From NCBI GenBank assembly GCA_010405405.1, contig MU004232.1:1879481-1943480 (forward strand): DNA of 64,000 nt, read 5' to 3'. Under the pieces are notes generated by a model. It was given only the letters and a program-made list of their open reading frames with translations, did no database searches and was not told the DNA's origin. This stretch comes from Microthyrium microscopicum (taxonomy: Eukaryota). A program made the position numbers and the translations under genes. This document shows, piece after piece, positions 51,639 to 54,893 of this stretch (positions within the stretch are counted from its first letter, which is position 1; each line of letters opens with the position of its first letter).

Positions 51639-52643
51639 TCAAAGATACGATTCCTCTTCACTTCGCTTCTTGAAGACCATGAGAGCCTTCCGCTTCGGAG
51701 TCTCCATCTCAACCTTCCAGTCTTCCTCATTCCGAACTCGCTTCTTCGTCGGCGTTGCCGGGACCTTGATACCCTTTTGTGCTTTGATCCACTGGCGTCG
51801 ATTTGCTTCTAAGAACGCGGCCTTCTTCCAGAAAATCTCCAACAACGGAGGAATATGATCTGCATGGAAGTTGCTTGCCAATGCCTCCGGATGTGCACGT
51901 TGAAGTTCGGTAACCCGCTTCTTCAGTGACTTAGGGACTTCTTTCGCCTCTAAGTACTGGAAGAAGTCATCGAATATGTCCTGCATGGCGATTCGAACCT
52001 CCAAGCTCTCATGTGGCAGTCCTAGGCTGCGCATCACTCGGCGGTAGGTCGCCAAGTTATCGACTGTAGGCGGCGAGATTTTGAAGCCAGGAAGTGTCTT
52101 CTGCAAGCGGACGCGGCATTCAACTCGCTCTTTGAACCACTTCAAGACATTTCTCAAAGGGTAGAGATCGACCTGGTCGATCCAGGGGCCGAGGTAGAAG
52201 GCACCGTTTGACAGTGGCTGGTCCGGGCTGAAGGCCGGATCGACATGAGTGCGAAATAGATATTGAATCATGGCGAGGGGGTAGCCTGGTGTAACAACGA
52301 CAGGAGGGCAATCTTCGTCTTGGTCGAAGCATATATCGACCGGTCGAGAATTGAGCATTTGCTCTGCCTCAGCTTTGCCGTACAGAGGGAGATCATCGGG
52401 CGAGAGTTCAAACACCATGAAATCATCGTTCGTATTCTTCTTGGGAGGCTGATATACCTCGAAGTTGTGTAGGTTGTTGGCCAGTTCCGACATGGAAAAT
52501 TCGAATAAAGGGTCCTTAGGGCCTTCAGGATCCGTCAGCCCCTTCGTAGGCGACGACTGGCCCAGAGCGTTGTGACAAGGCTTTGAGATGTTCAAGTCTA
52601 TCGCGTCTCCTAGGCTCATGTTGATGTTCTCTTGGTCAACCAT
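51639..52643 (-). CDS. Hypothetical protein with basic C-terminus (possible NLS)
   Basis: Intronless ORF of over 330 codons with protein-like composition; no family recognised; start uncertain (52643 or 52832). Confidence 0.6.
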   Translation of the reverse strand: MVDQENINMSLGDAIDLNISKPCHNALGQSSPTKGLTDPEGPKDPLFEFSMSELANNLHNFEVYQPPKKNTNDDFMVFELSPDDLPLYGKAEAEQMLNSRPVDICFDQDEDCPPVVVTPGYPLAMIQYLFRTHVDPAFSPDQPLSNGAFYLGPWIDQVDLYPLRNVLKWFKERVECRVRLQKTLPGFKISPPTVDNLATYRRVMRSLGLPHESLEVRIAMQDIFDDFFQYLEAKEVPKSLKKRVTELQRAHPEALASNFHADHIPPLLEIFWKKAAFLEANRRQWIKAQKGIKVPATPTKKRVRNEEDWKVEMETPKRKALMVFKKRSEEESYL

Positions 52644-53583
52644 CTTCGTGCACAATCTTTGAAGGGACGGTTGATGGAATGTATCCGCGTAGTAGTAGGA
52701 AAGCTGGTGATTTTGTGTTTGGCGTGGAATCGATTGCCTTACGAGAAAAAGTGTAGGGACGCCGAAGAGTGGTGGTTTAGGTGGAGAGGAGGGAGTTGCT
52801 GGAGAAAGAGAGAAAGGCCGGCCTGGAGCCATGAGGAAGCAGCTTTTGTAGCAATGGCAACGCGATCATAGTCACTTACAGATTCGAGGATCCCGGAGCC
52901 TAGTCTAGAGGTGAACTTATGTATGGTGAAAGCTTTGTTGGTGACTGATTTTGGCTATCGGCACCTCGAATACTGGGTACCTGTTGCAACGATAGACGCC
53001 AAGATATCCCTAAGTTTCTTATGAGTTGGACAGAAAGTATATAAATGGAATGTTAGTGCCAGAGAAGGTCCTTTTGCTGCGATATAGTAGATATAGTCCA
53101 CGGACTACAGTGGCTGGTGGAACACTCTGAGCCGCAAACGACGCGTTCTACCTTCATATACTACAGCAAACTGAAATGCAAACAGTAACACGCCATCAAA
53201 GCCATCACCGGTGCCGTACTGTAGGAGCTTAAACATTAGCGAGGTGAATTCATTGTGACTGAGGAGTTCCAGGTTCCCGTTGGAGGAGCCTGGCTCTGTC
53301 CGAGGTGGATGTGTTGGTCTTTACTACTCGATTCTCGCCTCTAGAGCCAGAAGACGGCTTGCCGCTGAGCGTGCGCTAGACCAGCCGCCCAGTTCAATCA
53401 GGTTATGATGCTGTTCATTGTCGTGATATTTTTCCATGCGAAGCGATCATAAAAGCTGAACATCCACAAGAGATGAATGATTTAGGGGGTTCAACAGTTT
53501 TGATATCATGTGCTATATAATCTGCGTGAAAATGTCAGTGAAAGTCTAACAAGAACAATGTGAATATGTGTGGATGGTAATGT

Positions 53584-53838
53584 AAATCAGAAAAGCCGTG
53601 ATAACTCAAGTCCCCCACCGGCCGCCAGCCCTTGGACTCCGAAACGGCTTCCAAGAGCCTTTGGCACTAAGGCGACAATTACACAACTCAGAAGAACCGA
53701 AATTGCAACTCTACAACCTATCATCCCCGTTCATCGGTCATAGGCAAGCCCATGGGTACGACGAAAGAGTCCGGTGCGAGAGGGGCACCTGGTGGGTGCG
53801 GACATTCGTGGAATGGATAGACTGGGTTTCATCCGGAT
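53584..53838 (-). ncRNA. Long (~250 nt) atypical box C/D RNA in host intron 3
   Basis: C-like CGGATGA (53835-53829), D'-like ATGA plus short hairpin plus C'-like GGATGAT, D box CTGA (53590-53587), terminal TGTA/TACA stem, two GC-rich hairpins. Confidence 0.6.
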
Positions 53839-53980
53839 ACAAAGTAATAAGGGGATGTGCGAGAGCAAACTTACCATATAAAGGGTTGGCGTTGCAACAT
53901 AGGAGTACCTGAAAAGAACACAACAAATTAGCAAAAGTGTTTCAATGGCTAGGCTGAGAGGGGCTAGTGTTCTTGTGAAG

Positions 53981-54062
53981 TTATCAGAAAAGGTAAGCTG
54001 GTATGAAGTATCTTCAAGGAAGTTCAGTAGCAGAACTGTAAAGTAATACGCTCATCATGAAA
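53981..54062 (-). ncRNA. snR61: Box C/D snoRNA, snR61 homolog (guide for LSU rRNA Am1133, yeast numbering)
   Basis: ATGATGA...CAGTTCTGCT-A-CTGA(D')...TGAAGA(C')...CTGA; guide complementary to conserved LSU AGCAGAACUG; layout matches recalled yeast snR61. Confidence 0.82.
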
Positions 54063-54240
54063 CAAGAGGACGAAGAAGGGGATATATCTACCTTTGAAGC
54101 AACTGCTAGCGATTCGAAGGCTAAATTCCGATCAGTACCCGAAATTGAAATACATCGCCGGTTCTACAGGTCAATATGTCTATAGTCTGGTCAGCGATGT
54201 GCCGTATCATGAAGAAAATCAGCATCGGACAAAGAGACTT

Positions 54241-54316
54241 TGCTCAGATGGTAGTGCATGTTGGTCAGGAACATGGGTTAGATATCCATAACTCATAGTG
54301 TTAAGTTCATCAAGGA
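54241..54316 (-). ncRNA. snR55: Box C/D snoRNA, snR55 homolog (guide for SSU rRNA Um1269, yeast numbering)
   Basis: TTGATGA...CATGCACTACCA-T-CTGA; guide complementary to conserved SSU UGGUGGUGCAUG; lies next to snR61 as in the yeast snR57-55-61 cluster. Confidence 0.85.
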
Positions 54317-54893
54317 AAAATGGTTTGGAAGTAAAATGTCAAACTTACACGAAAAGCGCTCCATGAGCGTGGATCACACAAACTCTCAGTCTCCACAGTC
54401 AACAGCATTACAGCGTTCCGCCGGTCAATCTAACAGCGAGGCCAGGCATCTTGAATCGGCAAGCCCAATGCGAGCTATCGCGAGCTATCAGGAGCTGCGG
54501 GTTTGACTGGTGAGTTGCTGAAGAAGTTGAGCTTGTGATGGAGGTTGAAAATGAGGGTGGAGAGCTTGTAAAAAATTCCAAGCGGCAGATTTCAGTTGGA
54601 GCTTGGACTAGTAAATTTAGTAAGCAAGGTAAGCAGCCTTTGGCCAATAGGAAGCCAGGATCAACATGGGCTAATATGCCCAGCCTTGGCTGCATTTTAG
54701 CCGCATTTCGACCAATTACAGATATCTCATGCTCCCAAATTGCCGTCTGCTATGCCCAAATCTGCTTAAGAAGACGATTTCCCTTCTTCCACTACTCTCT
54801 ATCATCTTCTCGCCTTTCATTCCACTCTCATACCTTTCATTGTAATGTTTTGACAATTAATTTGTGCTTCGCGACGCGACAATAGACTTCAAG

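Follow-up and report, generated by a model that had tools for sequence, protein, structure and literature searches.

A probable member of the orphan CD_53 snoRNA family in the third intron of a snR55-snR61 host transcript of Microthyrium microscopicum

Introduction

The locus considered here raises the question of whether an intronic RNA unit about three times the size of its neighbours represents a new kind of small nucleolar RNA (snoRNA) and, if it does not, to which family it belongs and how it could act. The unit is encoded on the minus strand of a 64,000-nucleotide (nt) stretch of the Microthyrium microscopicum genome (contig MU004232.1 of GenBank assembly GCA_010405405.1, positions 1,879,481 to 1,943,480), hereafter called the window, to which all unlabelled coordinates refer. 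It lies in the third intron of a transcript whose first two introns carry a snR55-type and a snR61 RNA. An initial annotation, made from the sequence alone, had described it as an oversized, structured and atypical box C/D RNA, third in this intronic series, and had proposed that it was a non-canonical guide or a chaperone of ribosomal RNA (rRNA) folding.

Our analysis gives a more familiar answer. The unit (53834-53587) is, in all likelihood, an ortholog of Neurospora crassa CD53 and thereby belongs to the orphan box C/D family CD_53; this estimate covers identity and architecture, not mechanism. The novelty of the RNA is removed by this assignment, as the family was published in 2009 (N. crassa CD53) and again in 2018 (Nc_CD_53), and the window holds a new copy of it.

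Identity of the unit

N. crassa CD53 (GenBank EU780977) is an orphan RNA of 212 nt encoded on chromosome IV, obtained by complementary DNA (cDNA) cloning and seen on northern blot (Liu et al. 2009, PMC2780460). The N. crassa snR55 and snR61, named CD34 and CD38, are on chromosome IV as well (PMC2780460). When CD53 and the window unit are compared by eye, they have in common, directly after box C, the element CAGUCUAUCCAUUC.ACGA(.AUGU) and, towards the 3' end, the element GAGUUA..ACGGCUU.UCUGA. The two RNAs are thus alike in their 5' element after box C, in their 3' element before box D and in their orphan status, and with 212 and 248 nt they belong to one size class. The window copy is unlike CD53 in its variant C box, GGAUGA, and in an additional hairpin of ~30 nt.

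Size and terminal boxes agree with this assignment. In the fungal snoRNA survey of Canzler et al. (2018, 'The fungal snoRNAome', PMC5824354), Nc_CD_53 was traced across Pezizomycotina and is the only one of the fungal C/D families to have members in the range of 200-300 nt. The window unit (248 nt, against 83 nt for snR61 and for the snR55-type RNA) and its homologs (205-248 nt) fall within this range. At its ends, the unit carries GGAUGA in the place of the box C consensus RUGAUGA, a box D CUGA and a terminal stem of 4 base pairs (bp; TGTA/TACA in the DNA, UGUA/UACA in the RNA). The description of an oversized, atypical C/D RNA, third after snR55 and snR61, holds.

An Rfam scan of 53522-53874, such as had been suggested together with the initial annotation, gave no match up to E 10; Rfam is silent on the unit because the CD_53 family is without an Rfam model. 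An identity with yeast snR57 was rejected on the same scan, in agreement with the earlier statement that the unit is no member of the yeast snR57-55-61 cluster. A literature search for CD53 as a snoRNA returned nothing besides the two papers cited above (PMC2780460 and PMC5824354), and looking for the 14-nt element, or for its complement, brought up one unrelated paper. As a separate observation, 'Intergenic structure 2', described in Pezizomycotina with an average length of 144 nt, 24 covarying pairs and, in the table concerned, no H box (PMC8216456, Table 1), might overlap the internal domain of CD_53.

Homologs and synteny

Metagenomes were scanned with the 19-base 5' element, which gave 36 loci. 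A RATGA box stands 3-4 nt ahead of the element in 23 of them, all of which were kept as homologs. The 13 others (L001, L004, L005, L006, L012, L014, L018, L023, L027, L028, L032, L033 and L035) were treated as chance matches, because they have no such box at this distance. Two truncated units (L021 and L026) and four duplicates were excluded from the 23, and the 17 distinct full-length units that were left (205-243 nt) were aligned with the window (alignment A1). One locus, L003, is near-identical by eye to N. crassa CD53 over its first ~60 nt and aligns with the window over its full length.

A nhmmer profile built from the 17 homologs, with the window left out, has a single match in the window, at 53834-53584 (E 1.7e-29). 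When the columns of the element are removed from the same profile, it still matches 53729-53584 (E 2.8e-15), and the homology is therefore independent of the search pattern. Between lineages, the region between the terminal elements is 33-55% identical.

The position of the unit is as regular as its ends. In 22 of the 24 family loci (the window being counted), 205-268 nt separate the guide core of snR61 from the element downstream of it, and the two loci without it extend just 225 and 122 nt upstream; a 5' splice site precedes box C by 31-53 nt in 21 of the 24. These results show that CD_53 regularly occupies the third intronic place in the snR55-snR61 host gene. With Rfam at the gathering score, snR61 is detected upstream in six of eight scanned loci and snR55 in one, and a more stringent snR55 motif occurs in 11 of the 24 loci. 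The N. crassa RNA was listed differently: Liu et al. classed CD53 as intergenic (PMC2780460), whereas CD_53 is intronic and directly behind snR61 in the window and in the homologous loci. The features of the window are collected in Table 1.

Table 1. Coordinates of the probable CD_53 unit, its parts and its surroundings in the window
Feature	Position	Strand	Basis or remark
CD_53-family box C/D snoRNA unit (probable), box C to box D	53587-53834	minus	248 nt; leave-one-out nhmmer profile and by-eye match to N. crassa CD53
Box C, variant GGATGA (GGAUGA)	53829-53834	minus	Sequence; variant also in one metagenome lineage
5' element (E5), CAGTCTATCCATTCCACGA	53806-53824	minus	Common to N. crassa CD53; unpaired in RNAalifold consensus
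ACGA, end of E5, candidate degenerate D' box	53806-53809	minus	Interpretation
Helix I, 5' strand, closing the predicted internal domain	53791-53801	minus	Alignment columns 54-64 with 252-260; double changes in 6/8 pairs
Window-specific insertion, ~30 nt, with its own small hairpin	53737-53766 (about)	minus	Gaps in 17/17 other A1 sequences; local fold -16.8 kcal/mol
Long conserved hairpin (helix 10; hairpin 2 of the initial annotation), loop CGUYUUGG	53627-53659	minus	11 pairs, 9 with two-sided changes, 90% of cells paired
Helix I, 3' strand	53612-53619	minus	RNAalifold consensus and covariation count
TTGAGTT, candidate degenerate C' box	53603-53609	minus	T and G invariant; 11-13 nt ahead of box D in every lineage; right after helix I
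3' spacer (E3), ATCACGGCTTTT, at the D-guide position between C'-like box and box D	53591-53602	minus	12 nt; core [AC][CT]GGC(T/G)TT conserved
Box D, CTGA	53587-53590	minus	Sequence and alignment
Third intron of the host transcript	53522-53874	minus	353 nt, GT..AG; X5 contig joins 53521 to 53875 (plus-strand ends CT..AC)
Separate X5 contig inside intron 3	53672-53825	minus	154 nt; depth 58.8 vs 439 for the spliced exon contig
snR61, in intron 2 (53906-54088)	53981-54063	minus	Rfam RF00476, 58.4 bits, above gathering score
snR55/SNORD33-clan snoRNA, in intron 1 (54180-54348)	54238-54320	minus	Rfam RF00133, 36.3 bits, below gathering score 44, relaxed thresholds

Structure and box topology

Folding energy gives the RNA no extra stability when compared with shuffled sequences (z = -0.55 for the 248-nt unit, -0.80 for the whole intron), and the earlier description of a structured RNA finds its support elsewhere, in the comparison of the metagenome homologs. 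The RNAalifold consensus on A1 comprises 46 pairs, in which 93.1% of the cells are standard-paired. In shuffled controls this proportion is 78.8%, none of 500 reaching 93.1%, and it falls to 38-48% when the partners are slid by 1-3 columns. Two-sided changes are found in 31 of the 46 consensus pairs, a count somewhat favoured by the fact that the structure was predicted and counted on one alignment. The predicted structure of the internal domain is supported by this covariation, not by energy.

The consensus also sorts out the two large hairpins that the initial annotation had drawn. Its second hairpin corresponds to helix 10, which is conserved and covaries in 9 of its 11 pairs, whereas its first lies mostly in the insertion that is specific to the window. 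The internal D' and C' boxes that it had placed at AUGA..GAUGA are located in the same insertion, which is absent from the 17 other homologs, and this box assignment is unsupported. An internal CUGA (53691-53688) sits in a variable hairpin.

On its outer sides, helix I is flanked by ACGA, which ends the 5' element, and by xUGAGU, which lies 11-13 nt before box D. Their position just outside helix I argues for a normal C/D RNA with a domain inserted between D' and C'. Judged from the order of these motifs, the unit would be read from 5' to 3' as box C, a 15-nt single-stranded guide element, D' (ACGA), a multi-helix insert of ~190 nt, C' (UGAGU), a 12-nt guide and box D; its architecture would be that of an ordinary C/D RNA carrying a large structured insertion.

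Two further motifs are conserved within the domain, a GGAUGA-like one (~53726-53720, A1 131-137) and GUAAU (~53683-53678, A1 187-192), and both fall at junctions or in internal loops. They and the loop CGUYUUGG of helix 10 could serve to bind proteins, for instance by forming a second kink-turn.

Possible functions

Targets were searched for in ribosomal DNA (rDNA), namely in one complete, fungus-like unit (L073), in L043 and in 49 shorter fragments, including L042 and L081, both of which have Pezizomycotina-like 18S ends. L042 comprises the 3'-terminal 472 nt of 18S, the internal transcribed spacer (ITS), 5.8S and the start of 25S. L073 is rDNA from a contaminated bacterial assembly, and its helix-34 sequence is one base off that of the other loci. 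Scans of rDNA on viral contigs yielded a 912-nt piece resembling the small-subunit rRNA (L037), 103 nt of large-subunit rRNA (L039) and two chance matches (L038 and L040), and two of them were empty. As regards the origin of such rDNA, at least 51 bacterial or archaeal assemblies and metagenome-assembled genomes (loci L041-L091) have contigs bearing an 18S 3' end and ITS of eukaryotic type, which represent eukaryotic contamination; on one of them, a contig of 24 kb filed under a Bryobacteraceae metagenome-assembled genome, there are two rDNA repeats.

Contiguous, energy-based, bipartite, all-fragment and box-anchored searches of this rDNA revealed no outstanding rRNA site. The 5' element has no contiguous complementarity to L073 beyond 9 bp; when it is anchored on ACGA with the fifth base paired, it reaches at most 9 bp, at two conserved 25S sites of L073, and in duplex energy it does not surpass shuffled elements. 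The 12-nt 3' spacer pairs over 8-10 bp with more than ten equally good rRNA sites of L073, including GTAAAAGTCGT near the 3' end of 18S. A search of the rDNA for bipartite pockets found nothing consistent, and a recurring 18S site with GGGATAGA, ~245 nt before the end of 18S, offers just 7-8 bp. The best site for the 5' element in L043, which lies in a variable region of 25S (-22.1 kcal/mol), was set aside, the ITS of this locus being ~1600 nt long and looking non-fungal. On L073 rDNA, no duplex of the kind formed by a canonical methylation guide (at least 10-12 bp at D or D', with the fifth base paired) was found, in line with what the initial annotation had expected of this RNA. The orphan status of CD_53 is confirmed by these target searches.

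How an orphan of this kind could act is a matter of more tentative judgement. It is possible, though short of probable, that CD_53 acts without methylating, as a snoRNA-protein particle (snoRNP) that binds pre-rRNA or recruits a factor by means of its 5' element and internal domain. In a more specific form, to which we would commit ourselves still more tentatively, CD_53 would be a Pezizomycotina-specific non-methylating snoRNP, in which the 15-19-nt 5' element and the ~190-nt domain dock pre-rRNA or recruit a dedicated factor. By analogy, its counterparts would be yeast snR190, or snR4 and snR45 with Sni445 and Kre33.

Several points weigh against this reading and against the identification and topology from which it starts. 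The sequence of N. crassa CD53 (PMC2780460, supplementary file 1) was compared by eye only. The 5' element is invariant across all aligned homologs, but this invariance is biased, the 19-nt element having itself been the search pattern, and only the match between the window and N. crassa CD53 is independent of it. The C' box is weak, since 9 of the 18 aligned sequences, all from one lineage, have UGC for UGA, and the better conserved GGAUGA-like motif inside the domain is not explained by the proposed topology. The 154-nt X5 contig inside the intron speaks weakly for a stable product, and contigs show neither the ends of an RNA nor its size. The rDNA that was searched included no complete Pezizomycotina rRNA, 5' external transcribed spacer (ETS), spacers, small nuclear RNAs (snRNAs) or transfer RNAs (tRNAs). 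A chaperone-type role, finally, is possible and has the failed target search as its sole argument.

CD_53 could instead be an ordinary 2'-O-methylation guide, of which the D' or D guide pairs with a target conserved in Pezizomycotina (expansion segment, 5' ETS or ITS, snRNA or tRNA) outside the examined RNA, an explanation that we hold to be unlikely while taking it seriously. It agrees with the canonical topology and the 12-nt spacing between C' and D, with the 5' element being placed exactly at the D' guide position, and with an rRNA sample in which L073 is the one complete, fungus-like unit and L042 the Pezizomycotina-like fragment. There is also a loose candidate on 25S: according to Canzler et al. 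(PMC5824354), Nc_CD_53 has no unambiguous target, and the best one given by snoStrip, on 25S, is only loosely conserved and has a mean energy of -11.56 kcal/mol. The explanation has to face, however, the short matches and shuffle-like energies of the 5' element before ACGA, as well as the many equivalent sites of the 3' spacer. In addition, the bases adjoining box D differ by lineage (UUUU, UUGU, GUU, UUUA, UUU), which shifts the predicted target. That CD_53 acts on another RNA target is rather improbable.

The large, once-orphan C/D RNAs that guide acetylation deserve a closer comparison. Yeast snR4 and snR45 and vertebrate SNORD13 (Sharma et al. 2017, PMC5464676) are likewise large and structured, they use short non-canonical complementarities, and their internal helices matter functionally. 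They differ from CD_53, which is intronic, in being independently transcribed, with a first guide before box C and a second one in the loop (PMC5464676). It is quite improbable that CD_53 is the Pezizomycotina counterpart of snR45/SNORD13, serving Kre33/NAT10 acetylation of 18S helix 45 via short bipartite pairing. In favour of this are its nature as a large, structured orphan C/D RNA, the confinement of snR45 to Saccharomycetaceae reported in the available text of PMC5824354, and the fact that acetylation guides pair over just 5-15 bp (PMC5464676). Moreover, the spacer ACGGCUUUU pairs over 9 bp (one G-U) with the 18S site GTAAAAGTCGT, ~12 bases upstream of the helix-45 CCG; this pairing holds in 10 of the 18 aligned sequences, and the 18S sequence is also present in L042 and L081. 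Against it, a 9-mer identical to this match occurs in 25S too, and the 18S site is not the site of the second guide (GS2) of snR45 (1760-1767). In snR4 and snR45, the first guide (GS1) precedes box C at the very 5' end and GS2 is located in the loop (PMC5464676), whereas a 5' extension of this kind is missing from an intronic RNA processed back to its C/D stem. No good match to the 5' element was found within the final 472 nt of 18S in L042, where it stayed short of -15.2 kcal/mol. Apart from the 9-bp spacer match upstream of helix 45, no complementarity to helix 34 or helix 45 matching that of acetylation guides was found in the examined rDNA.

The pairings proposed in the initial annotation fare worse. 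It had paired the 12 nt at 53607-53596 with the 18S region targeted by vertebrate U45, and UGGGCUUGCCU, taken as a guide before D', with the region of GGGCAAGUCUG. Both duplexes can be drawn on the 18S of L073, where the first meets CTGTGGTAATTC at 148-159 (12 bp with 3 G-U) and the second a site at 550 (11 bp with 4 G-U). Such lengths are nevertheless expected by chance: the unit has two further matches of at least 12 bp to L073 rDNA, and shuffled units have 3.9 on average, with at least one in 97.5% of 200 shuffles. The 12 nt at 53607-53596 are not conserved among the 17 homologs, they differ in all other lineages and in N. crassa CD53, and they overlap the C'-like box, while UGGGCUUGCCU falls in the window-specific insertion. 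A U45/SNORD45-like guide, whose duplex would in addition be offset from box D, was rejected, and a non-canonical guide or chaperone acting through these two duplexes is very improbable. For the neighbouring 18S sites, N. crassa has the guides CD17, CD15 and CD32, of which CD17 and CD32 serve the U45-type sites in the 18S 150-170 region (PMC2780460).

It is equally hard to credit that the unit is only a cis-acting structured element of the intron, involved in splicing or in host-transcript turnover and giving no stable trans-acting RNA: a stability not above that of shuffles and contigs that do not define the ends of a stable RNA are in keeping with it, but N. crassa CD53 has been obtained as a cDNA clone of 212 nt and gave a northern signal (PMC2780460), the C/D boxes and terminal stems are conserved, and a separate intron-internal contig is present in X5.

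Host transcript and neighbouring snoRNAs

A 5108-nt contig of run X5 skips exactly 53522-53874, 53906-54088 and 54180-54348, each bounded by GT..AG on the minus strand. Because of this spliced contig, the three introns are confirmed, and with them the borders that had initially been given to the 353-nt intron. X5 is a run with window-identical sequence, and its RNA nature is, apart from the splice joints, guessed; in runs X6 and X7, coverage is confined to the snR55 region. Introns 1 and 2 are uncovered in X5, as is intron 3 outside 53672-53825, a lack from which no conclusion is drawn. The short introns carry CTGAC/CTAAC branch sites.

The spliced host RNA contains 17 ATGs ahead of a 397-codon open reading frame (ORF; 52832-51639, minus strand), of which the closest clusters are Ascomycota BTB-domain proteins. 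These upstream ATGs fit a separate non-coding host, as had been assumed from the start, and the host RNA is probably such a transcript. The 5108-nt contig extends ~4.7 kb past 53400, and a contig cannot establish a single transcript. As it joins the host exons (53400-54525) to these ~4.7 kb of downstream sequence, it should include the BTB-like ORF (51639-52832). The presence of the host exons and the downstream ORF in one contig is likelier to reflect read-through or merged transcripts than a true 5' untranslated region. By general analogy with intronic snoRNAs, the probably non-coding host RNA would be transcribed with the unit in intron 3, splicing would free this intron, and trimming back to the C/D core would yield the RNA.

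Concerning the neighbours, the guide ACTACCATCTGA of the snR55-type RNA of the window is intact despite the sub-threshold score obtained with the SNORD33 model, and the snR55 copy of locus L009 scores above the threshold of the snR55 model (52.9 vs 50). On the 135-kb metagenome contig of locus L010, a tRNA gene is located at 679-768, ~500 nt downstream of the CD_53 unit.

The order of the three snoRNAs can be set beside that of the yeast cluster snR57-snR55-snR61 (cluster II; Cao et al. 2013, PMC3596301), which is the same host cluster, with snR55 followed by snR61 and one snoRNA per intron. CD_53 sits 3' of snR61, whereas yeast snR57 sits 5' of snR55. According to the same source, snR57 was lost in Euascomycetes, where the cluster consists of snR55-snR61, and the available part of its text mentions no third member.

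A last observation concerns another N. crassa orphan, CD55 (137 nt, intronic). Its sequence AUCAUGCACCAC is complementary by eye to GGTGGTGCATGG, just upstream of the helix-34 CCG, and from this complementarity CD55 may be a snR4-like acetylation guide. In the available text of Canzler et al. (PMC5824354), CD55 was found in Neurospora only.

Significance

The RNA of the window is not new, and our finding mainly corrects an over-reading of it. It adds, modestly, three things to what is published on the CD_53 family. First, CD_53 lies in an intron and is constantly the third snoRNA of the snR55-snR61 host gene, as opposed to its intergenic listing in N. crassa. Second, its large insert appears as a covariation-supported domain flanked by degenerate D' and C' boxes. 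Third, its 5' element is constant while the remainder falls to 33-55% identity between lineages. CD_53 is an orphan conserved across a major fungal subphylum that includes many plant and human pathogens. If the non-methylating reading is true, it would represent a lineage-specific guide of ribosome assembly or of base modification that a single host gene expresses together with snR55 and snR61.

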